Positions 353 to 14,751 of a DNA stretch of 17,332 bases are shown piece after piece (the first letter of the stretch is position 1; every line of letters begins with the position of its first letter). Made by a program: the position numbers and the translations under genes. Source of the DNA: Spirochaetales bacterium (lineage in GTDB: Bacteria; Spirochaetota; Spirochaetia; ARS1246); assembly GCA_016930115.1 (NCBI GenBank), contig JAFGHN010000007.1:1-17332 (forward strand), written 5' to 3'. The notes under the pieces are model-generated. The model was not told the DNA's origin and made no database searches. It worked only from the letters and a program-made list of their open reading frames with translations.

Positions 353-760
353 ATGACAACCGACCGGCAAGGCAGCGGTTTGCAGTTCATCCTCGATCCC
401 ACCGGTGGAGTGCCCTACTATCGGCAGATCATCATGCAGATAGAGATGGCGATAGCCGACGGGCGGCTCAGGACCGGCATCCAGCTTCCGACTGTCCGGG
501 CGCTGGCTGTCGACCTTCAAATCAATCCAAACACCGTCGCACGGGCCTATAACGAGCTTGAGATCCGCGGTATCGTCAACACCCAGCAGGGTACCGGCAC
601 TTTTATCAGCGATAAGAAGATAGATCTGACCGACAGTGAACGGAGCGAGGTCCTCGCGGGCCTCGTACGTTCATTCCTGGCTACCGCGTCGTCCTACGGC
701 TTTACCGTTGACCAGATCATGACGTATCTCGACGAGAGAAAGGAGGGGCAAAAGCAATGA
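353..760 (+). CDS. GntR-family transcriptional regulator, YtrA-like subfamily (short C-terminal domain)
   Basis: 135 aa. N-terminal winged HTH with GntR signature (IQLPTVRALAVDLQINPNTVARAYNELEIRGIV). The C-terminal part is only about 60 aa, as in YtrA-type regulators. Stop overlaps the next gene (ATGA). Confidence 0.85.
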   Translation: MTTDRQGSGLQFILDPTGGVPYYRQIIMQIEMAIADGRLRTGIQLPTVRALAVDLQINPNTVARAYNELEIRGIVNTQQGTGTFISDKKIDLTDSERSEVLAGLVRSFLATASSYGFTVDQIMTYLDERKEGQKQ

Positions 761-1920
761 AATCGTTGGATTTCTTTGGCCGGCATGAGGATCGCGAGGA
801 GAAAACCGCGTTCGTACGGCACCGCGGGCACTTCAGGTTCAACACTATTTCTGCTCTCGCGCTGCTTATCTTTATCGCCCTCGGCCTGGGTTTTCAGGGT
901 ATTGTCGCAGACTTCCCGGATGCCGAAACCATCGCGTATATCACGTCCGGAGTGCTGGCGGCGGCGGCATTGCTCTTCATCCTTCCATACTGGCCCCTGG
1001 TCATAGCGATCATTGCTGCGATCTGGGCAGTGCTTCCGGTTGCTCTTGGCGTGGACCTGCAGTTCGCGGCGGTCGTCCTCACCCTTGGATTTCTCATCTC
1101 TCCGGGATTCGAGGTGATAAATCAATGGGACAAGATCGTAGTTCTCCGTCTCGGCCGGTTCCACAAGGTCCGGGGCCCGGGCGTGCTGATGTTGTTTCCT
1201 CTTATCGACTCGGTTGCGGGCTATGTTGATACCCGGATCCGGGTGACCGATTTTTCGGCGGAGAAGAGCCTTACAAAGGATACCGTTCCGGTACATGTGG
1301 ACGCGCTCGCCTTCTGGATGATCTGGGACCCTGAAAAGGCGATCCTGGAAGTCGAGAACTTTGAGCAAGCCGTGGTATTGAGCGCTCAGACGGCCTTGAG
1401 GGCCAGTATCGGCTCCAGCGACCTGGCGACACTGTTGAGTGAACGCGAAAGGCTTGGGGAAGAGATCAGAAAGATCGTCGACGCCAAAACGGATTCCTGG
1501 GGGATAACGATCATCTCCGTGGAGTTCAAAGAGATTCTCATACCAAAAGAGCTCGAGGATGTCCTGAGCAGGCAGGCGCAGGCAGACAGGGAAAAAACCG
1601 CGAGGATCGTCCTCGGCTCGGCAGAGGTCGAAATTGCTGGCGCGTTCAAGAAAGCCGCCGACCAGTACCGTGAAGATCCCGTAGCATTCCAGCTCCGGGC
1701 GATGAGCATGATCTATGAAAGCATCAGAAACAGGGGCGGCATGGTGCTCGTTCCCTCTTCGGCCCTCGAATCGATGAATTTGGGTACCGTGCTCGGTGCG
1801 ACGGCGTATGCAAAAAAATCGCCGTTTGCCGCCGGGGACCTTCAGCCGGAAAATGCGCCCGGAAGCCCGCCGGGAAGCGCTCCGGATAGCACACCGGATA
1901 GCGAGCCGGAATCACTATAG
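757..1920 (+). CDS. SPFH/band-7 (stomatin/slipin-like) membrane protein with about 4 N-terminal TM helices and an acidic Pro/Ser-rich C-terminal tail
   Basis: 387 aa. Residues about 30-115 are very hydrophobic (several TM segments). The central region matches the band-7 fold pattern (VVLRLGRF...VDTRIRV...DALAFWMIWDPEKA...ISVEFKEILIPKE...REKTARIVLGSAEVEIA). The tail is PENAPGSPPGSAPDSTPDSEPESL. Translationally coupled to the GntR gene. Confidence 0.85.
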   Translation: MKSLDFFGRHEDREEKTAFVRHRGHFRFNTISALALLIFIALGLGFQGIVADFPDAETIAYITSGVLAAAALLFILPYWPLVIAIIAAIWAVLPVALGVDLQFAAVVLTLGFLISPGFEVINQWDKIVVLRLGRFHKVRGPGVLMLFPLIDSVAGYVDTRIRVTDFSAEKSLTKDTVPVHVDALAFWMIWDPEKAILEVENFEQAVVLSAQTALRASIGSSDLATLLSERERLGEEIRKIVDAKTDSWGITIISVEFKEILIPKELEDVLSRQAQADREKTARIVLGSAEVEIAGAFKKAADQYREDPVAFQLRAMSMIYESIRNRGGMVLVPSSALESMNLGTVLGATAYAKKSPFAAGDLQPENAPGSPPGSAPDSTPDSEPESL

Positions 1921-1932
1921 CGGGGGACGCCT

Positions 1933-2817
1933 GTGATTGAAGTCAGCAATCTCACTCAAGTATACAGAAGCGGAAAAGGCGTTTTCAACCTCGATTTTTC
2001 GATACCGGAAGGAGAGATATTCGGCTATCTTGGACCCAACGGTGCGGGGAAAACAACCACCATCAGGAATCTTCTGGGATTTGCGAACGCCGACGGCGGG
2101 TATGCGAGGATAAACGGTCTTGATTGCAGAAAGGACGCGGCCAGGCTTCAACCGATGATCGGCTATCTTCCCGGTGAAACCGCGTTCCTCGAAGACATGA
2201 CCGGCGCCGAGTTTCTCAAGTTCATGAGTGACATGCGCGGCACCGGGGATACCGGCAGACGTGATAGCCTCACAGAGAGATTTGCCCTCGATCCAAGGGG
2301 AAAAATCAAGAAAATGTCAAAAGGGATGAAACAGAAACTGGCGATCATCACCGCTTTCATGCATGATCCGGCGGTGTACATCCTCGATGAGCCGACCGCG
2401 GGCCTCGATCCCTTCATGCAGAACGTGTTCCTCGATCTCCTCGAGGAGGAACGGGGGCGCGGGAAGACCGTTATGATGTCCTCCCACATCTTTGAGGAGG
2501 TACAGCGAAGCTGTGACCGCGCGGGTATCATCAGGGAAGGGCGCCTTGTCGCAGTTGAAGACATAGAAGCGCTCAACGATGCGAAATCAAGAACATACGC
2601 GGTGACCTTCGCAGACCCCGCGGACTTAGGAAAGCTCGATGGACTGCAATTCCGCAGAATTTCATCGAACAGGGTCGAGATAACCGTCGGTCATGACTAT
2701 CGAAGTTTTTTCCAGACGCTCGCTCACTGCAGCGTGGTAGGGCTGTACTCGTCGGAGCAGTCTCTCGAAGACGTGTTTATGAAGTACTACGGAAGGAACG
2801 GCGGGACAGATGAATAA
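1933..2817 (+). CDS. ABC transporter ATP-binding protein (ABC-2 / DrrA-like subfamily, with C-terminal DUF4162-like extension)
   Basis: GTG start preceded by GGGGGA RBS. Walker A GPNGAGKTT. Degenerate signature MSKGMKQK. Walker B ILDEPTAGLD. H-loop SSHIF. About 80-aa C-terminal extension typical of ABC-2 ATPases. Confidence 0.9.
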   Translation: MIEVSNLTQVYRSGKGVFNLDFSIPEGEIFGYLGPNGAGKTTTIRNLLGFANADGGYARINGLDCRKDAARLQPMIGYLPGETAFLEDMTGAEFLKFMSDMRGTGDTGRRDSLTERFALDPRGKIKKMSKGMKQKLAIITAFMHDPAVYILDEPTAGLDPFMQNVFLDLLEEERGRGKTVMMSSHIFEEVQRSCDRAGIIREGRLVAVEDIEALNDAKSRTYAVTFADPADLGKLDGLQFRRISSNRVEITVGHDYRSFFQTLAHCSVVGLYSSEQSLEDVFMKYYGRNGGTDE

Positions 2818-3610
2818 GACGTTATTTCTCGTGGATCTGAAAGCGAACTGGCGTGTCATTCTCTTTGTCTCTCTCGTATTCATGATATACGTCTTAACGA
2901 GCGTGCTGATGTATGATCCTGACAGCATCGAAAAACTTGAACAGATGTTCACTCTGTTTCCGGAAGGAATGCTCAAGGCGCTCGGTTTCGATACGCTGGG
3001 GACGGACCTCAACGGGTACGTAGCCCACTACCTGTACGGGTTCATCGCAATCATATTCCCGCTTATCTATATCATTGTCATAGCCAACAAACTCATTGCG
3101 AAACACGTCGACTCGGGTTCCATGGCCTACCTGCTTACCACTCCCGTCACCAGGGTGAAGGTGGCGGTAACGCAGGCGGTGTTCCACGTGTCCGGGCTCA
3201 TTCTGATTTTCCTTATCGATATTGGGGTATTGGTGCTTCTGAGCTCCGCGGTTTTCCCGGGAAGTCTCAAGTTGGCGAGCTTTCTCTCGCTTAACTTCGT
3301 GACCATCATGACGTTGACGGTTGCCGGCGGAATCGGTTTTTTGTTTTCATGCATGTGCAACGACTCACGGAATTCTCTGGCCTTTGGGGCAGGTATCCCG
3401 GTCGCGTTCTTTGTCTTCAAAATGGTCTCCGAGATCGACGCCAAGCTCGAAGGTTTCAAGTATCTGTCGGTGTTTTCGCTGATCGAGATAGATAAGATAT
3501 TGGCGGACCCGGCCTACGGTCTGGGCGTGGGTTTTATCCTTCTTGGTGTGTCGGTGTTGCTTTACGGCGCCGGGGTTATCATCTTCAATAAGAAGAGTCT
3601 TGCGATATGA
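2810..3610 (+). CDS. ABC-2 type transporter permease (6-TM type)
   Basis: 266 aa, 6 predicted hydrophobic helices and no soluble domain. ATG overlaps the upstream ATPase stop by 8 nt. Confidence 0.8.
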   Translation: MNKTLFLVDLKANWRVILFVSLVFMIYVLTSVLMYDPDSIEKLEQMFTLFPEGMLKALGFDTLGTDLNGYVAHYLYGFIAIIFPLIYIIVIANKLIAKHVDSGSMAYLLTTPVTRVKVAVTQAVFHVSGLILIFLIDIGVLVLLSSAVFPGSLKLASFLSLNFVTIMTLTVAGGIGFLFSCMCNDSRNSLAFGAGIPVAFFVFKMVSEIDAKLEGFKYLSVFSLIEIDKILADPAYGLGVGFILLGVSVLLYGAGVIIFNKKSLAI

Positions 3611-3629
3611 ATTACAGGGGGTGTTGGTA

Positions 3630-4484
3630 ATGATCAAGGTTGAAGGGCTCTATCATTCGTATTCACATGACGATAAGTATGCAGTCCGCGATGCCAGTTT
3701 TGAAATAACCCGTGGAGAAGTCTTTGGATTCCTGGGGCCGTCCGGGGCGGGGAAGTCGACGACGCAGGGTGTGCTGACCGGTTTGCTTCAACTGCAGAAA
3801 GGCAATGTCTCCGTGGCGGGGTACGACGTCAAGAAACCGGTTCGCAAGATGTTCAACAAAATCGGTGTTTCTTTCGAGCAATCGAACGTATACGGCAAGC
3901 TTACCGCTCTCGAGAACCTCGAGTTCTACAGGAAGCTCTTTGACGTACCCACCCGGGATGCCATGGAGTTGCTCGAGATAGTGGGCCTCGATCACGTCGC
4001 GAACCAGCGGGCGGCGGAGTTTTCAAAGGGAATGAAGCACCGTCTGACTTTCATCAGAAGCATGATCAATAATCCTGAAATTTGGTTTCTCGATGAACCG
4101 ACGACGGGTCTCGATCCGGCGATTGCGAGCGAGATCAAGGACATCATCAAGCGCGAGAAGGAAAAAGGGACGACCGTGTTCCTTACCACCCACAACATGT
4201 TTGTGGCGGATGAGTTGTGCGATAGGGTCGGCTTTATCATCGACGGCGAGATCAAGCTTATCGATTCACCGAGAAACCTGAAGCTTCAATACGGCGAAAA
4301 GCTCGTGGAGGTGGACTACCGCAAAAACGGCGGTACGGTACGAGAGAAACTTTCCTTCATCGATGAGAGCGACAGGCGGCGGCTCAACGAAATCGTAAAC
4401 ACCGGTGCCATTGAAATGATGCACACAAAAGAAGCGACTCTCGAGGAGATCTTTATCAAGGTTACCGGAAGGGGGCTCGAGTAA
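3630..4484 (+). CDS. second ABC transporter ATP-binding protein (ABC-2 subfamily)
   Basis: ATG 3630 preceded by GGGGG RBS (3616-3620). The ORF-track start at 3543 lies inside the upstream permease and lacks an RBS. Walker A GPSGAGKST. Signature FSKGMKHRL. Walker B FLDEPTTGLD. H-loop TTHNMF. C-terminal extension present. Confidence 0.85.
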   Translation: MIKVEGLYHSYSHDDKYAVRDASFEITRGEVFGFLGPSGAGKSTTQGVLTGLLQLQKGNVSVAGYDVKKPVRKMFNKIGVSFEQSNVYGKLTALENLEFYRKLFDVPTRDAMELLEIVGLDHVANQRAAEFSKGMKHRLTFIRSMINNPEIWFLDEPTTGLDPAIASEIKDIIKREKEKGTTVFLTTHNMFVADELCDRVGFIIDGEIKLIDSPRNLKLQYGEKLVEVDYRKNGGTVREKLSFIDESDRRRLNEIVNTGAIEMMHTKEATLEEIFIKVTGRGLE

Positions 4485-5518
4485 TGAAACTGTTATACAG
4501 CTTTCTGAAAGATATGCGGTTGTCCTTCAAGAGCTTCTATATTTATATCGAGATCGGTTTTGCGCTGATATTCGTCGCGATAATGTTGTTTGTCGTTCCC
4601 GAGAACATCCGGCCGCAGGTCACCGTGTACGCCCATATCGATCTGCCTGAATCGTACCTTTCGGCCGCGGAAGGCGCGCTTTCAAAGGAAGGGTACGATA
4701 TAACGATGCTTTCTTCCCGGGAAGAAGTGGAGTCAGAGATTGCTTCCCACAGAAGCAGCGTCGGGCTCGTGGTTTCGCCGGAGGGCGGCAAGATCGTATA
4801 TGACTATATCCTCCAGGGATACGAAAGCGAGAAGTTCAAGAACGTCATCAAGGCCTCGATCGAAGGCACCTTTGTAAAAATGGCGCCCGGATTCCAGGAT
4901 GTCACCTCGGTGACAACCATCGAGGGCGACATCGAAAAGCTCTCAACGCGTCTGAATATGCTCCCGGTTTTCCTGGGGCTTAACGCGGCTTTTATGGGGC
5001 TTTTCATTATTGCGGCGTACATATTCCTTGATAAGGAAGAAGGCACCATCAAAGCCTTCGCCGTTACACCCGCCAAGGTGTGGCACTACCTGGCGAGCAA
5101 GATGGGTGTGATGCTTGTAACCGGATTGTTGTCCGGGTTGATCGCCACGGTGTTTATAGCGGGCGGGAAGGCGCACTACTTCCATCTGATCATGCTCATC
5201 ATCTCGCTCAACGCTTTCGGATCAGCCCTTGGGCTGTTTATTGCGAGCTTCTTCGATACCATGACAAAAGCCATGGGCTGGCTCTATGTTTCGATCATTA
5301 TTCTAGCTTTTGCGGCGGTGTCGTACTACATGCCGGCGTTCTCGCCCCTGGTTATTCGCATCCTCCCTTCGTATCCGATGCTCTTCGCATTCAGAGAGAC
5401 TCTGCACGAAGTGGTGGACCTCGGGTACGTGTACGCAAACGTGGGCGGATTTGCGGCGGCCGCGGTTGTGTTTTTCCTGCTTTCGAACTACCGGTTTAAG
5501 AAGACGCTGACGGTGTAA
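4484..5518 (+). CDS. ABC-2 family permease (N-terminal TM anchor, about 130-aa extracytoplasmic domain, 5 C-terminal TMs)
   Basis: 344 aa. Topology read from hydrophobicity: TM1 at about 17-37, soluble region about 40-165, then 5 hydrophobic helices. TAATG overlap with the upstream ATPase. Confidence 0.75.
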
Positions 5519-5528
5519 GGAGGCTCCC

Positions 5529-6530
5529 ATGTTCAGAAGAATATTTGCGGTTACTTTGCGGGATCTGAAAAGCGGTAGCCGTGATTTCATGATTCCCTAT
5601 ATCCTCGCGGCGCCGTTCCTTCTCGCGCTCATCTTGAAGGCCATCATCCCCGGAGCCGGCTCGGCGACGATAAACATAGCGGTGGACAGATCCGTAAGCG
5701 ATGAAGTCGTTACGTACCTGGAGGGGTACGGCAGAGTTGAAAAGCACGACGGCGTGGCGGATCTGGAAAAAAGAGTAGCGAAGACCGACGACGTATTCGG
5801 GCTCACGAAAACCGCGGAAGGATACGGGATTATCAGACGGGGGGACGAAACGCCCGGGGGGATCGAGATGCTGCAGGCGGTTTTGAATGCCCTGGAGAAT
5901 GGAGACCTCGACCTGCCCGTTGAAGTGCGGCTATCAGATATCGGTTGGAAACTTTCGCCCCTCAAACAGCATGGCGCGAACTTCCTCATCATCTTCTGCT
6001 CGGTATTCGGCGGAATGCTTATCACCTTAAGCCTTGTGGAGGAGAAGATGAGCAACACGCTGTCGGCAATCAACGTGAGCGCTGTCTCAAGGGCAGAGTT
6101 TATCATCGGTAAGAGCATTATCGGTTTCCTTGCGCCGATTCTCGGCGCCTTCGGCGTCATCTGGATCCTGGGATTTGAGGGCATCAACTACGGAATGGTG
6201 GCGCTCTCTTTCGTCAGCGTGGCCCTTATCAGTATCATCATAGGATTCAGCATCGGCAGCGCGAATACCGAACCGATCGGCGCGATTGCGAGCATGAAGA
6301 CCCTCTTCATCCCGGTGTTTGGGTCGATTTTTGGTGGAATATTCCTGGCAGACAAATGGCACCCGTTTCTCTGGTGGTCGCCGTTCTACTGGGCGTACAA
6401 TTCAATGGATTCGATCATGCTCAACGAAGCTTCCTGGGGGAAGGTATTACTGAACAGCGGAATCGTCGTCGTGATCACCGCGCTGGTATTCGCGGCGTTG
6501 AGAAAGAAAATCAGGCATGGCCTGCAGTAA
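5529..6530 (+). CDS. ABC-2 family permease paralogue (same TM1 - extracytoplasmic domain - 5 TM architecture)
   Basis: 333 aa. Strong RBS TAAGGAGG 8 nt upstream. Same architecture as the preceding gene but a divergent sequence. Confidence 0.75.
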
Positions 6531-10260: not shown

Positions 10261-11610
10261 TCACGCCGACATTTGTTGTATCGCAACTTCTGCAGCATTT
10301 ACGAGTTGATAGGCTATTGGCGACGCCGTAAGCGCAGGATGGGTGCCCGTTTGGAATGTGGCAATATCGTTTGCCGTCATTCTCTGGTGAATGCATGCGC
10401 TTATCGCGTTTATGAGCTCTCCGCCGCTTTTTGCGCCGTTTACCTGGCCGCCTATGATGACCTGGCTGCCGACTTCAAAAAGCAGCTTGACGCTCAGCAT
10501 TTCACCGCCGGGCATACAACCCGGATGACGGTTGATCGATTCCGCAACTCCCTCCACAACGTGGTAGTTTTTGGCCTCAGCCTGGGCTTTTGTAAGGCCG
10601 GCCGCGGCAAAAGCGCAGTCGCCGATCACCGTCGAATACACACCAATGACGCCCATGTTCACCCTGTGCGTTGAAAACAGGTTGGCGCCGGCTATCCGCG
10701 CCTCCATGGAAGCTATCGAGGCAAGCTTGAGGGCGGACGGCTTTCCGTCAAAGAAGGATACTTTCTCCGCGCAGTCCCCGCAGGCGAAAATAGAATCGTC
10801 GCTGGTTCTCATATACCTGTCCACTTGTATTCCGCCGGTGAGCCCGATCTCCAGACCCGCATCCTTGGCTAGTTCGGTGTTGGCTTTCGCCCCGATGCCG
10901 AGAAGCACGATGTCAACATCTATCTCCTTGCCGCTGTCAAGCTTTACTTTCTCTACGTATTCGCCACCCTCGAGAGACTCGACCTTCTCGTCGAGGGAGA
11001 GAGAAATATTCTCGGCCTTCAAGGTTTCCTCGGCTTTGACGCAGAACTCTTCGTCATACACGAGCTGCAAACAGTGGGTGAGCATCTCAACAATTGATAT
11101 TTTCAAATCGGGATAGCGGCGTCTGCATTCCTCCGCAAGCTCAACGCCGATAAAACCGCAACCCACGACGCAGAGGCTCTTTGCTTTTCCCATTGCTTCA
11201 ATTGCGGTTTCGAGGTACGGAACGTCTTTCTGGATTGCAAAGATGTTCTTCTTGTTGACTCCGGGGAACGGAGGTATGACCGGCCGCGAGCCGGTCGCGA
11301 GTACGAGGCTGTCGTATCCAAACTCGTCTTTTGAAGCGCCGGTCACCGTCTTCGCTTTGGGATCGATCTTTACAACCTCGTCCACAACCGTATCGATTGC
11401 GTTCTTCTTCATGGTGTCATCCGCGGGAATGAGGTTTTTTTCAGGAGTACCCACCACGCCAAAAGCGTAGGGGATCCCGCAAGGTATCGGAACAAGCTTT
11501 TCTTTGCGAATAACCAGAATACTCTTCTTCGGGTAATGCCTGCGCGCCGTTATAGCGGCAACAAGACCGGCGGCGCTTGCGCCTATCACGATAACATCAT
11601 ACTTCTTCAT
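10261..11610 (-). CDS. FAD-dependent pyridine nucleotide-disulfide oxidoreductase, single-redox-Cys class (NADH oxidase / CoA-disulfide reductase / NADH peroxidase family)
   Basis: 449 aa. FAD GxGxxG (VIVIGASAAG). Candidate redox-active Cys in PIPCGIPYAF near residue 44. NAD(P) site VVGCGFIGVELAEE. C-terminal dimerisation-domain pattern. GGAGG RBS. Confidence 0.85.
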   Translation of the reverse strand: MKKYDVIVIGASAAGLVAAITARRHYPKKSILVIRKEKLVPIPCGIPYAFGVVGTPEKNLIPADDTMKKNAIDTVVDEVVKIDPKAKTVTGASKDEFGYDSLVLATGSRPVIPPFPGVNKKNIFAIQKDVPYLETAIEAMGKAKSLCVVGCGFIGVELAEECRRRYPDLKISIVEMLTHCLQLVYDEEFCVKAEETLKAENISLSLDEKVESLEGGEYVEKVKLDSGKEIDVDIVLLGIGAKANTELAKDAGLEIGLTGGIQVDRYMRTSDDSIFACGDCAEKVSFFDGKPSALKLASIASMEARIAGANLFSTHRVNMGVIGVYSTVIGDCAFAAAGLTKAQAEAKNYHVVEGVAESINRHPGCMPGGEMLSVKLLFEVGSQVIIGGQVNGAKSGGELINAISACIHQRMTANDIATFQTGTHPALTASPIAYQLVNAAEVAIQQMSA

Positions 11611-11638: not shown

Positions 11639-11657
11639 AATATTGATAATCATTATT
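11639..11657. promoter_or_regulatory. Fur-family (Fur/Zur/PerR-type) box AATATTGATAATCATTATT, with 7-1-7 core TGATAAT-C-ATTAT, in the divergent intergenic region
   Basis: 16/19 identity to the classical Fur box GATAATGATAATCATTATC, read directly. It lies 29-47 nt upstream of the minus-strand oxidoreductase start. It overlaps a plausible plus-strand promoter (TTGATA 11643-11648, 17 nt, TATAGC 11666-11671) for the ZIP gene. Confidence 0.5.
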
Positions 11658-11738
11658 TATTGCAGTATAGCCGGTCCCGGAAATTGTGGCAATCGTTTTT
11701 GACTCCGCTTGAGGACGTGCGTTACACTACAGGTATCT

Positions 11739-13070
11739 ATGAGTATTGAATTGCTGCGAAGCGCCTTCTTCTGGGGCTTGATCAGTGCGGTTTCGCTTCC
11801 GCTGGGAGCGTTGCTCGGGCTGCTGACCCGCCCTCCTCGCAAAGTGACGTCGGTGCTCATGGCTTTTGGCGCCGGCGCGCTGCTTTTTGCGCTGACCATT
11901 GAGCTTTTCTCTGAAAGCCTGCATCTGTCGCGCGAGTCAGGCAACAGCATCATCTATATTACAATAGCGGGTGCGCTGGCAGGCGGCCTGCTGTTTGACC
12001 TGCTCAACCAGCTCCTCAACAATCGCGGCGCCTTTCTGAGGAAGTTCGTTACGACAAGGAAGCACCTCGTCCGGATGAAGCGGAAAATGGCCCGCGCGCT
12101 CGTCAACGAATTGAGCCGGGTCAGGCTTCTTCAGTCGCTTCCCCCCGACGACATAGCAACGTTGATTCCCAATATGAAACGAGAGACCTTCGATGCAGGC
12201 GAAGTGATTTTCAGACAGGATGATCTCGGGTCAACTCTCTATTTCATCGTTTCCGGAGAGATCGAAATCCTGAGACGCGACGAGAGCGGGGATGAAAAAA
12301 CGGTCGCCGTTTTGTCCGATAATGACACCTTTGGAGAAATGGCGCTTCTCGGCAGCAGTCCACGGAATGCGACCGCCAGAGCCAAAACGCGAACGAACGT
12401 TTTGAAGGCTCTGCACAGCGATTTTGAGACGGCCCTTGCGCAATCGGACGCGCTCCGTGAATCGGCGCTGGTGCTGTTTCACCAACGCGCGGAGAATCTC
12501 TCGCAAAAGGCGAAGGACTACAGCGCCGAGGAGTGGGAGAGCAGGTGTTTGAAACGGCTGCAGCGTCTTTCAATCCCGGTTTCCGAGCAGGAAATCAACG
12601 AGGAATCGCAAAAAGCGATGCTGGGGAAAGGCGCGGCGATGGCGATCTGGCTTGGCATACTTCTCGACGGCATCCCTGAGTCCCTCATCATCGGGATCCT
12701 CTCGGCGAGCGTCACCGGTATCAGTCTGGCGTTTATCACCGGCGTTTTTCTGGCAAACCTCCCTGAAGCAATGTCAAGCGCCGTCGGCATGAAGAAAAGC
12801 GGTATGTCCTTCTCAACCATTCTCCTCATGTGGGGTTCTCTCTGTCTTATTACAGGCGCCGGCGCCGGTATCGGTGTTTTGCTGTTTCCGCCATCTACCG
12901 GAAAGTCGAGTTACATGCTCTTGAGCGGTATCGAGGGACTTGCCGCGGGAGCGATGCTGACGATGATCGCCGAGACGATGCTGCCTGAAGCCTTTGAGCA
13001 GGGCGGGGCAATCGTCGGATTTTCGACTCTGCTTGGCTTCCTTACCGCTCTTCTTGTCAAAGTGTTTTGA
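11739..13070 (+). CDS. ZIP-family (ZupT-like) metal transporter with a cyclic-nucleotide-binding (CAP-effector-type) domain inserted in the TM3-TM4 cytoplasmic loop
   Basis: The N-terminal 3 TMs align in pattern with ZupT TM1-3 (compare E. coli ZupT [21 protein letters not shown] with MAFGAGALLFALTIELFSESL here). The C-terminal 5 TMs carry ZIP xxPE motifs: LLDGIPESL and LANLPEAM (versus HNFPEG / HNIPEG), and ETMLPEAF (versus DELMP). Between them, residues about 145-265 form a complete cNMP-binding domain with an intact phosphate-binding cassette, FGEMALLGSSPRNATARAKT. Start chosen at ATG 11739; the track's TTG at 11709 is less likely. Confidence 0.75.
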   Translation: MSIELLRSAFFWGLISAVSLPLGALLGLLTRPPRKVTSVLMAFGAGALLFALTIELFSESLHLSRESGNSIIYITIAGALAGGLLFDLLNQLLNNRGAFLRKFVTTRKHLVRMKRKMARALVNELSRVRLLQSLPPDDIATLIPNMKRETFDAGEVIFRQDDLGSTLYFIVSGEIEILRRDESGDEKTVAVLSDNDTFGEMALLGSSPRNATARAKTRTNVLKALHSDFETALAQSDALRESALVLFHQRAENLSQKAKDYSAEEWESRCLKRLQRLSIPVSEQEINEESQKAMLGKGAAMAIWLGILLDGIPESLIIGILSASVTGISLAFITGVFLANLPEAMSSAVGMKKSGMSFSTILLMWGSLCLITGAGAGIGVLLFPPSTGKSSYMLLSGIEGLAAGAMLTMIAETMLPEAFEQGGAIVGFSTLLGFLTALLVKVF

Positions 13071-13143: not shown

Positions 13144-14142
13144 ATGAAATACGTTACGGCGCGACGGTTCTTTTTGCCGCTATTTCTCCTCACCGCGTTG
13201 GCGGTCTCGCTTCCGGCCGACGGGGAACCAGGGACTGCTGCCGCCGCGATGACCGCGGCAATCGGAAAGCCTGTAAGGATGAAGACGACCCAGGGCGGCG
13301 TTTTTCATGGCATCCTGAAGTTGGTAGCGGAAGACAGGATCGAAATAGTCGCCGACGACGGGCAGATCCTACAAATCGATCTGGAATCGGTAGAAGAGTT
13401 TACCGTCATTGAGGAGAAGATCACAAAAGAGACCTTCTTCCAGGATTCCGCGGCCAACCGTCTGATCGTGATGCCCACCGGATTTCCCATGGAAACCGGG
13501 GAGTTTCACGTAGCAGACCAGGAGATTATTGCGGTAACCGTCAGTTACGGCTTGAACGAGCATGCATCCTTCTGGGCGGGTTTGAGTATACCCGGTTTTC
13601 TCGTGAGCGCGCGCTATATCTTCTCGCCTTCAGACAGCTTCGCGCTTTCGGTCGGTTCCTTTGCGGGTCTATCCTGGATGGAGAACCTCAAGACCGGGGT
13701 AATTCTTCCCTATCTCATCGGTTCCTGGGGAGAGCCGAACAACAACATTACGGTGGGCGCAAGCCCGATAGTGACCTTTGACTACACTCGGGCCACACCG
13801 TTTGAGCTCAATGGCGCGGTTGCTGCGCTGGGCGGGAAGATGGTATTGACGGCCTCTTCCTCGCTGATATTTGAGAACTGGATCATGTGGCTCAAGCGGG
13901 ATGTCTACGGGGGCTCGCTTGATCAGGCGAGTGCGAAATGGGACGCCGTTCCCAGAGTCCTCCTTCCCGCGGTTGTGTTTCGCATCGCCGGGCAGCGGTT
14001 GAGCTGGGACATCGGTGCGATCATTCCGCTGTTCATAACGGATTCCGGCTATGAAGCGAATACCGGTTACAGGCTGCAAGGCATTGGCGGTGATGCGGTT
14101 ATTCCACTCCCGATCCTGAGCGTGACCTATCGTATCGATTGA
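13144..14142 (+). CDS. secreted hypothetical protein (signal peptide; beta-rich, possibly outer-membrane or periplasmic)
   Basis: 332 aa. N-terminal signal peptide MKYVTARRFFLPLFLLTALAVSLPADG. Long stretches of alternating hydrophobic/polar residues consistent with beta strands. No recognisable catalytic motif. Confidence 0.55.
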   Translation: MKYVTARRFFLPLFLLTALAVSLPADGEPGTAAAAMTAAIGKPVRMKTTQGGVFHGILKLVAEDRIEIVADDGQILQIDLESVEEFTVIEEKITKETFFQDSAANRLIVMPTGFPMETGEFHVADQEIIAVTVSYGLNEHASFWAGLSIPGFLVSARYIFSPSDSFALSVGSFAGLSWMENLKTGVILPYLIGSWGEPNNNITVGASPIVTFDYTRATPFELNGAVAALGGKMVLTASSSLIFENWIMWLKRDVYGGSLDQASAKWDAVPRVLLPAVVFRIAGQRLSWDIGAIIPLFITDSGYEANTGYRLQGIGGDAVIPLPILSVTYRID

Positions 14143-14171: not shown

Positions 14172-14372
14172 TTAATCATCGACCTTGTATCCCGCTGCCG
14201 CCACCGCTTCTTTCACGGTGTCCAGGGAGACATCCCCTTTTACAACCGCCGACTGCTTCCTGAGGTTGACGGAAACGCCTTTGACGCCATTCAGTTTTTC
14301 GATACTCGATTTGACCGTTCTGACGCAATGGTCACAGCTCATTCCAACAATTTTCAGCTTTAGTCTGGTCAT
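14172..14372 (-). CDS. heavy-metal-associated (HMA) domain metallochaperone, CopZ-like
   Basis: 66 aa from ATG 14372 (GAGGAG RBS 6 nt upstream); the track's longer start adds 9 residues without an RBS. MxCxxC metal-binding motif GMSCDHC, ferredoxin-like beta-alpha-beta-beta-alpha-beta pattern. Confidence 0.75.
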   Translation of the reverse strand: MTRLKLKIVGMSCDHCVRTVKSSIEKLNGVKGVSVNLRKQSAVVKGDVSLDTVKEAVAAAGYKVDD

Positions 14373-14406
14373 GTCAAACTCCTCTGCATGTATATGCAAC
14401 TATCAG

Positions 14407-14751
14407 CTATTCCTCCACGTGCTCGAGTCCGAGGTTGAGAATCGCGCCTATGTGGTTGTCGTTCAAGGTGTAGAACACCATTTTCCCCTCTCTTCTATAC
14501 CTGGCCAGCCGCGCCTGGCGCAGCAGCTTCAACTGGTGGCTGATGGCCGCCTGTTGCATGTTCAACACCGCACAGATGTCCTGCACGCAAAGCTCTCTGT
14601 CGCGCAGGAGAAAGAGAATCCGTATCCGTGTGGGATCACCGAACACTTTGAGGAAATCCGAGAGATCCTGAAGCACTTCCTCGATGGGGAGTCTATCCGC
14701 GAGGATCTTTACCTCGTTTTCGGTTAGATTGCAGGCGTCAACATCGGCCAT
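14407..14751 (-). CDS. ArsR/SmtB-family metal-sensing transcriptional repressor (both alpha3N-type Cys ligands and alpha5 DxHx10Hx2E site present)
   Basis: 114 aa. HTH region ELCVQDICAVLNMQQAAISHQLKLL. Cys7, Cys55, Cys60 sit at CadC/SmtB alpha3N-like positions. The C-terminus DNHIGAILNLGLEHVEE exactly fits the alpha5 motif D-x-H-x10-H-x2-E. GGGAGA RBS. Confidence 0.85.
   Translation of the reverse strand: MADVDACNLTENEVKILADRLPIEEVLQDLSDFLKVFGDPTRIRILFLLRDRELCVQDICAVLNMQQAAISHQLKLLRQARLARYRREGKMVFYTLNDNHIGAILNLGLEHVEE

Follow-up and report, generated by a model that had tools for sequence, protein, structure and literature searches.

Can a ZIP transporter be switched directly by a cyclic nucleotide? 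The question is raised by one gene in a contig from a Spirochaetales bacterium (JAFGHN010000007.1, assembly GCA_016930115.1; the window, that is, the whole stretch of DNA analysed, is 17,332 nucleotides long). At positions 11739-13070 it encodes a ZIP-family protein with a cyclic-nucleotide-binding (CNB) domain set into the loop between its third and fourth transmembrane helices (TM3 and TM4). ZIPs are the main importers of zinc, iron and manganese from bacteria to humans, and their post-translational and elevator control is poorly understood. From the conservation and geometry set out below, we think it probable, if by no means certain, that this ZIP-CNB protein is a ZIP-superfamily transporter of divalent cations under cyclic-nucleotide control.

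In the literature the architecture is a novelty; in the databases it is not. A full-text search of open-access papers and bioRxiv, with subscription journals and TCDB outside its scope, returned no description of a ZIP-CNB protein, and the 2007 census of CNB domains lists no ZIP-associated class (PMC2246266). The databases already hold such proteins, which PGAP labels 'cyclic nucleotide-binding domain-containing protein' and JGI 'zinc transporter ZupT / CRP-like cAMP-binding protein'; NCBIfam has no model specific for them. The original prediction, made from the sequence before this analysis, had called the coupling of second-messenger signalling to metal uptake uncharacterised in this family; within the literature searched that still holds, with the qualification that the architecture itself was already on deposit. 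CNB modules are promiscuous, and CNB fusions are in themselves unsurprising.

Architecture and fold of the ZIP-CNB protein

Architecture, fold, topology logic, residue conservation and linker geometry are directly seen. The frame runs unbroken from an ATG at 11739 to a stop codon at 13068-13070 and encodes 443 residues, and NCBI has a protein of 100% identity from the metagenome-assembled genome (MAG) of a Spirochaetales bacterium; an in-frame TTG at 11709 would extend the protein by 10 residues, and we prefer the ATG because homologues begin at its position. Hidden Markov models (HMMs) place a CNB domain (Pfam cNMP_binding, PF00027; 84.4 bits against a cut-off of 27.5, E 5.7e-24) at residues 149-235, covering profile positions 2-88 of 89, and a Zip domain (PF02535, ZIP family, TC 2.A.5; 56.5 bits against 35.1, E 3.4e-15) in two stretches flanking it, so that the proposed order Zip-CNB-Zip is borne out with both scores over threshold. 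Conservation and spacing counts given here are taken over the 118 closest database homologues, 49-84% identical overall; the 120 best, from NCBI, JGI, ENA and Logan assemblies, are 415-471 residues long and nearly all carry both Pfam domains.

In an AlphaFold2 (AF2) model built on 118 homologues (mean predicted local distance difference test, pLDDT, 76.7; predicted template-modelling score, pTM, 0.55), the TM helices and the CNB barrel are both well predicted. By fold comparison the protein resembles BbZIP, with eight TM helices in all, three ahead of the TM3-TM4 loop and five behind it; the loop is cytoplasmic. That loop is larger than the approximately 120 residues first proposed: TM3 ends at about residue 96 and TM4 starts at about residue 298, giving an insert of about 200 residues that consists, in order, of a basic helix continuing TM3 (100-125), the CNB domain (about 118-253) and two helices within 263-294.

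Neither TM half, used alone as a phmmer query against the PDB, found a ZIP, and Foldseek with the whole model, like plain phmmer, returned matches only to CNB domains. A profile of family members, however, matches BbZIP at E 1e-7 and aligns by hhalign with E. coli ZupT at E 2e-5; the link to BbZIP thus comes from the family profile and the fold comparison, direct sequence search with the TM halves being insufficient. While the two halves do align to the ZIP family, as predicted, describing them as 'ZupT-like' overstated the kinship: the NCBIfam ZupT equivalog NF003243 scores 28.1 bits against a cut-off of 252, with its best stretch only at residues 8-94, and the metal ligands are replaced. The protein is therefore a ZIP-family member but not a ZupT orthologue, and its substrate is not deducible from ZupT.

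The TM2 stretch AFGAGALLFALTIELF is invariant and holds Glu55, found in 118 of 118 homologues. Three clusters of basic residues stand out: RPPRK between TM1 and TM2, KK between TM5 and TM6, and RKFVTTRKHLVRMKRKMAR, with which the TM3-4 insert opens; together with the established ZIP topology, in which the N and C termini both lie outside (PMC5573306), this pattern places the CNB domain in the cytoplasm. A Pfam scan of the protein found neither HTH_Crp_2, the C-terminal helix-turn-helix (HTH) of CRP/FNR-type proteins, nor any other HTH, and the CRP and NtcA matches in NCBIfam are limited to the CNB part and far under their cut-offs.

The putative nucleotide site and its place in the elevator

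The phosphate-binding cassette (residues 198-215) is canonical in sequence (F-G-E-x-A-L-x5-P-R-x-A-T-x-x-A) and in length, which equals that of PKA RI-alpha. The clamp Glu and Arg that the original prediction had read in FGEMALL...PRNATARA are confirmed as Glu200 and Arg209: Gly199 is kept in all 118 homologues, Glu200 and Arg209 in 117 each and Ala211 in 106, and the distance from Gly199 to Arg209 is 10 residues in every one. Retention of Gly, Glu and Arg despite the overall divergence indicates purifying selection on just those positions that would grip the ribose and the cyclic phosphate. The best CNB sequence matches found by phmmer are genuine cAMP/cGMP receptors (PKA-R, PKG, SthK and CRP), and we regard the domain as a putative cAMP/cGMP-type sensor. 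The residue after Arg209, which is Asn here and across the homologues Thr (51), Asn (38) or Ser (21), does not, as far as the alignment goes, discriminate cAMP from cGMP.

The two connections of this domain to the membrane differ in their spacing. Between G97 and G173, on the TM3 side, the distance is exactly 76 residues in 118/118 homologues, and that between R209 and R250 is 41 residues, again in all of them; by contrast, the distance from R250 to W266, a conserved Trp in the linker to TM4, varies from 14 to 21 residues, and that from W266 to W304 from 36 to 40. The TM3-to-CNB spacing is thus fixed, whereas the CNB-to-TM4 linker varies by several residues.

In BbZIP, a transport domain (TM1/4/5/6) slides against a scaffold (TM2/3/7/8), and the inward-to-outward switch has been proposed to start when alpha4 comes away from the scaffold at its cytoplasmic end (PMC9873690). 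Because TM3 belongs to the scaffold and TM4 to the transport domain, the insert lies at a mechanically relevant joint. From here on the account is inferred, which applies to nucleotide binding and its link to transport as much as to the sense of the regulation and the nature of the substrate. By analogy with BbZIP, the mobile transport domain of the ZIP-CNB protein, which carries the ion site, would be TM1/4/5/6, and its static scaffold TM2/3/7/8; the fixed-length TM3 helix would hold the CNB domain rigidly on the scaffold, and the looser helical linker would tether it to TM4. Binding of cAMP or cGMP to the cassette at Gly199, Glu200 and Arg209 would, as happens in other CNB proteins, move the alphaB/alphaC lid (in which the conserved Arg250 lies, with the conserved Trp266 after it), and the moving lid would tighten or relax the TM4 tether, switching elevator sliding on or off. 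Purifying selection on the clamp residues, the fixed TM3-to-CNB length and the position of the insert in the elevator lend indirect support to gating of this kind, in which nucleotide might either activate or inhibit.

Several points weigh against this reading. The interdomain arrangement in the AF2 model is uncertain (pTM 0.55, with pLDDT below 50 at residues 99-103, 252-261 and 294-296). The term 'metal transporter' is itself an extrapolation, the canonical ZIP metal ligands being replaced. The ZIP-CNB gene was found linked to neither a nucleotide cyclase nor a metal-homeostasis gene, whether in the window or across 84 related loci, and an Rfam scan of the window and 37 related loci showed no metal riboswitch upstream of it. 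CNB folds frequently have a different ligand or no ligand at all, and two-CNB proteins of the same clade, about 610 residues long, carry degenerate cassettes in which Glu has given way to Gly or another residue and Arg to His, which indicates that the scaffold of the clade tolerates non-canonical sensors.

These degenerate sister cassettes are also what favours the most durable alternative, in which the transporter is real and its CNB-fold insert is no cyclic-nucleotide sensor. The insert would then bind another small molecule, as in FNR-, CooA-, CprK- and NtcA-type folds and trypanosome PKA, or would be a ligand-free structural or autoinhibitory module, as in the CNB-homology domains of KCNH channels and CNNM transporters. 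We consider this unlikely, while giving it real weight: the single-CNB cassette is canonical, the near-complete retention of Gly, Glu and Arg (117-118 of 118 homologues) would be unexpected if the ligand were not a cyclic phosphate, and the best sequence matches are true cAMP/cGMP binders.

The cyclic-nucleotide-regulated transporter that we favour is like a hybrid of a ZIP elevator transporter and a CNB-regulated membrane transport protein such as MloK1, SthK or SLC9C1. It differs from known systems in three respects, namely a sensor at the joint between scaffold and transport domain, replaced ZIP ligands, and a clade whose loop holds 0-3 CNB domains. In the K+ channels MloK1, SthK and LliK, the CNB domain is C-terminal and joined through a C-linker to a tetrameric pore, whereas here it lies inside a secondary-transporter polypeptide, between two mobile domains; the sperm Na+/H+ exchanger SLC9C1 has an unrelated CPA/NHE fold with a C-terminal CNB domain that works with a voltage-sensing domain, and is eukaryotic only. 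Among ZIPs, BbZIP and E. coli ZupT have a short His-rich or unstructured loop and His/Asn/Gln/Asp metal ligands, in contrast to the folded insert and replaced ligands of the ZIP-CNB protein. Eukaryotic ZIPs such as ZIP4 carry a His-rich TM3-TM4 loop (IL2) at the same cytoplasmic position, and the TM3-TM4 loop of BbZIP and human ZIPs has been implicated in metal release and sensing (PMC5573306). The ZIP4-type loop is disordered and binds the transported metal, whereas that of the ZIP-CNB protein is a folded putative second-messenger receptor, so that its regulatory input would be independent of the substrate.

Were this reading correct, the protein would be the first ligand-switchable ZIP, with a folded receptor wired between scaffold and transport domains, and would offer a handy means to trap ZIP conformational states by cryo-EM. 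Many bacteria and some alveolates would steer divalent-cation influx directly by second messenger, a form of control much faster than the usual transcriptional route through Zur, Fur or MntR.

The ion site and the clade that shares it

Site correspondences were taken from the BbZIP profile alignment, with which the ZupT alignment agrees for the TM4, TM5 and TM7 motifs (Table 1). In BbZIP, M1 comprises H177, E181, Q207, E211 and M99, and M2 comprises N178, E181, D208, E211 and E239 (PMC5573306), while H275 and E276 lie on the cytoplasmic metal-release path (PMC5573306, PMC9873690). In the ZIP-CNB protein H177, N178, Q207, D208, E239 and H275 become D310, G311, A339, N340, T372 and E412, with L48 approximately at M99. 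The proline-kinked xPE core is kept in 118/118 homologues (P313-E314 and P342-E343, aligned to BbZIP P180-E181 and P210-E211), but the binuclear Zn/Fe-type ZIP centre is not found: of the metal ligands only two Glu (E314 and E343) survive, and there is no His or Met. The altered site is itself conserved, with E55, D310, P313, E314, S315, A339, N340, P342, E343, T372, P416 and E417 kept in all 118 homologues and E412 in 115. Its putative ion ligands, all oxygen, are Asp310 and Glu314 (TM4), Asn340 and Glu343 (TM5), Thr372 (TM6) and Glu412 (TM7).

The substrate is probably a divalent cation. Because the site is acidic and all-oxygen and lacks the His/Asn/Gln/Asp/Met set of Zn-transporting ZIPs, that cation is possibly harder than Zn2+ (Mn2+, Fe2+, Mg2+ or Ca2+). 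Metal uptake, as originally proposed, is thus plausible, but the metal may not be zinc, the His/Asn/Gln/Asp ligands being replaced. The replaced Zn-type ligands flag an unstudied ZIP subfamily, one that bears on how a ZIP site encodes metal selectivity.

The absence of canonical zinc ligands could also speak for a signalling 'transceptor' or metal sensor, in which an ion would be detected by the ZIP module and its signal combined with the cyclic-nucleotide level by the CNB domain, so as to control a partner protein; some ZIPs do play non-transport signalling roles. We judge this improbable, since no output domain or conserved partner gene was found by Pfam scan and among the neighbours of 84 loci, and since invariant proline kinks and acidic transport-site residues in an intact eight-TM elevator fold are the pattern of a working transporter.

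The same site recurs well beyond the single-CNB proteins. A HMMER scan with the TM4-8 half alone over 1.84 billion cluster representatives gave 1963 matches at E ≤ 1e-3, 825 at ≤ 1e-10 and 150 at ≤ 1e-30. When module order was tallied with HMMs for the three modules in 148 of the top cluster representatives, 39 proved to be TM-CNB-CNB-TM (mostly about 610 residues), 30 TM-CNB-TM, 5 TM-CNB-CNB-CNB-TM and 21 TM-loop-TM with no CNB detected, the remaining ones being fragments. D[GAS]xPES and [AS]NxPE[AS] are present in members of every architecture class where the pattern search found them, and this recurrence leads us to regard the altered site as defining a distinct ZIP clade; combined with the invariance of the site residues, it argues that transport function is conserved. 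On these module counts, the TM3-TM4 loop appears as the variable regulatory slot of the clade, filled by 0-3 CNB modules.

Given the degenerate cassettes of the two-CNB proteins, canonical nucleotide binding would be a trait of the single-CNB subgroup and not of the whole clade. The two-CNB sister group is bacterial and large (P0139, P0156, P0162, P0167 and others of about 610 residues; locus L087, 6001-7842). One of its cassettes reads FGG.SFLTGARH..TA.A, with Gly or another residue for Glu and His for Arg, and these proteins probably sense something other than a canonical cyclic nucleoside monophosphate. Members also occur in protists, namely Vitrella brassicaformis (P0133, CEM33398.1), the dinoflagellates Prorocentrum cordatum (P0274) and Ceratium (P0228), Guillardia theta (P0191) and Rigifila ramosa (P0135). 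The protist relatives share DxxPES and xNxPEA and include proteins of 700-900 residues with up to three CNB-like modules, the number found in the 864-residue Vitrella brassicaformis relative; protist members without a CNB have acidic, Ser-rich low-complexity loops.

A bolder proposal is that the DxxPES/xNxPEA clade constitutes an unrecognised ZIP subfamily for a hard divalent cation (Ca2+, Mg2+ or Mn2+), with the CNB members providing cyclic-nucleotide-gated cation entry. We put this forward as speculative and, on present evidence, rather doubtful. If it were true, the CNB-bearing members would be carrier-based functional analogues of cyclic-nucleotide-gated channels, and cAMP/cGMP would be tied to cytoplasmic Ca2+, Mn2+ or Mg2+ in many uncultured phyla and in alveolates (Vitrella, dinoflagellates).

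Table 1. Features of the ZIP-CNB gene and protein, with positions in the window
Feature	Residues	Position	Strand	Basis or alignment
ZIP-CNB gene	443 aa	11739..13070	+	ORF (open reading frame) list and translation; stop codon included
Candidate sigma-70-like promoter of the ZIP-CNB gene		11699..11728	+	TTGACT, 18-nt spacer, TACACT
ZIP N-terminal module, TM1-TM3	1-96	11739..12026	+	AF2 helices 3-30, 34-67, 70-96
Basic helical linker from TM3 to CNB, GAFLRKFVTTRKHLVRMKRKM	97-117	12027..12089	+	AF2 helix 100-125
CNB domain	118-253	12090..12497	+	N-terminal helices, eight-stranded beta-barrel, alphaB/alphaC helices
Phosphate-binding cassette, FGEMALLGSSPRNATARA	198-215	12330..12383	+	Translation; Gly199, Glu200, Arg209 present
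CNB-to-TM4 linker	254-297	12498..12629	+	Low-confidence segment, then short helices 263-276, 283-294 (AF2)
ZIP C-terminal module, TM4-TM8	298-443	12630..13067	+	AF2: five TM helices at 298-442
TM4 transport-site motif LDGIPES	309-315	12663..12683	+	BbZIP 177-HNLPEG-182; ZupT LHNFPEG
TM5 transport-site motif ANLPEA	339-344	12753..12770	+	BbZIP 207-QDVPEG-212; ZupT HNIPEG
TM7 motif ETMLPEA	412-418	12972..12992	+	BbZIP 275-HEVIPET; ZupT DELMP
TM6 Thr	372			BbZIP TM6 Glu (E239/240); ZupT not aligned
TM2 Leu, Glu	48, 55			Approximately opposite BbZIP M99, S106; ZupT not aligned

Distribution and genomic context

With one genome taken per GTDB species, relatives are encoded in at least 287 stretches; the scan used only two peptide patterns, so that this figure is a minimum. 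The best 80 of these loci, which match the query over nearly its full length, come from Spirochaetota, Gemmatimonadota, Desulfobacterota/Thermodesulfobacteriota, SAR324, Acidobacteriota, Gammaproteobacteria, Myxococcota, Bdellovibrionota, Hydrogenedentota, Nitrospinota, Fibrobacterota, Latescibacterota, Delongbacteria and Atribacteria, and the named matches span more than 12 bacterial phyla. Almost all of the 80 are from MAGs; contigs longer than 2 Mb are among them, and one locus is from a cultured carrier, Allohahella marinimesophila JCM 17555, whose copy retains the cassette FGERAVISGVSRQTTARA and the motifs DGVPES and ANFPEA. A full-length relative at 44% identity was also found in an 'archaeon' MAG (L086, DATKXY010000234.1), representing either a rare archaeal case or a binning error.

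In the window, the ZIP-CNB gene diverges from a pyridine-nucleotide-disulfide oxidoreductase gene (10261-11610, minus strand), with 128 nt between the two, and a 332-residue ORF (13144-14142, plus strand) begins 73 nt after it. All-against-all ORF clustering across 84 loci recovered as shared neighbours only generic ABC ATPases (10 loci), histidine kinases and GGDEF-EAL proteins, with no metalloregulator or metallochaperone among the clusters; in four related contigs compared with the window, the neighbours were unrelated. The sole Rfam matches were thiamine pyrophosphate (TPP) and fluoride riboswitches, unrelated to the ZIP-CNB gene. With no conserved partner across the 84 loci and no Rfam family upstream, the gene looks like a self-contained, single-gene unit.

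This context bears on a possible role in defence. In a Pycsar-type anti-phage effector resembling PycTM, infection would prompt a partner cyclase to make a cyclic pyrimidine, the ligand of the CNB domain, whereupon the TM part would collapse the membrane. PycTM and PycTIR likewise have a CNB domain joined to an effector or membrane module, and PADLOC detects the ZIP-CNB protein at the CNB level (45 bits), the likeness being limited to that generic domain. Pycsar systems, however, are cyclase-effector gene pairs, whereas no cyclase gene was found adjacent in the window or among the clustered neighbours of 84 loci, and the TM part, far from being a simple helix bundle that disrupts membranes, is a highly conserved eight-TM ZIP whose ion site does not vary. 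Nor is the context a defence island: the flanking genes are of housekeeping types, one homologous copy lies inside a dcw cell-wall cluster, and PADLOC gave no match for either flanking gene or for the ORF that comes next downstream. As the similarity is at the CNB level only and without a cyclase partner, we rejected this explanation as very improbable.

That the fusion is an artefact of a misassembled contig or a wrongly merged gene is scarcely credible: the window is a short metagenome-assembled piece (17.3 kb), and no other support was found, whereas the frame is uninterrupted and the many independent homologues, from NCBI, JGI, ENA and Logan assemblies and from at least 287 species-representative genomes, of which the best 80 are near full-length and include contigs longer than 2 Mb and a cultured isolate, effectively exclude it.

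The candidate promoter of the ZIP-CNB gene matches at 9 of 12 positions in a consensus scan; being a consensus match only, it carries no functional weight. Within the 128-nt divergent region, just downstream of a promoter-like site for the minus-strand oxidoreductase gene, lies a Fur-box-like site (11639-11657, plus strand; AATATTGATAATCATTATT against the E. coli consensus GATAATGATAATCATTATC, 16 of 19 positions), the sole one in the window, where 0.01 would be expected by chance. It may regulate the oxidoreductase gene, the ZIP-CNB gene or both, and hints at a local link to iron or manganese. As a feature of the family a Fur box was rejected, since upstream of homologues the best match reaches only 13 of 19 positions, equal to background, and the site gives no ground for assigning iron or manganese to the family.

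The 332-residue downstream ORF has a signal-peptide-like hydrophobic start (MKYVTARRFFLPLFLLTALAVSLPA) and did not cluster with neighbours of homologues; neither it nor the 180-residue ORF at 14185-14727 (plus strand) has a Pfam or PADLOC match. Elsewhere in the window are genes for a TRAP transporter, a universal stress protein, ABC-2 exporters, a GNAT acetyltransferase and a PhzF-like protein. An apparent operon at 353-6530 (plus strand), unrelated to the ZIP-CNB gene, encodes a GntR-family regulator, an SPFH/Band-7 protein and two ABC-2-type exporter sets, the first an ATPase and a permease and the second an ATPase and two permeases. The dcw copy mentioned above, in a Bdellovibrionaceae MAG (GCA_018663505.1; locus L004, 6001-7323), sits within the cell-division and cell-wall cluster flanked at distances of only 1-14 nt by a PBP/FtsI-type gene on one side and the first of the Mur ligase genes on the other, an odd place for a transporter.

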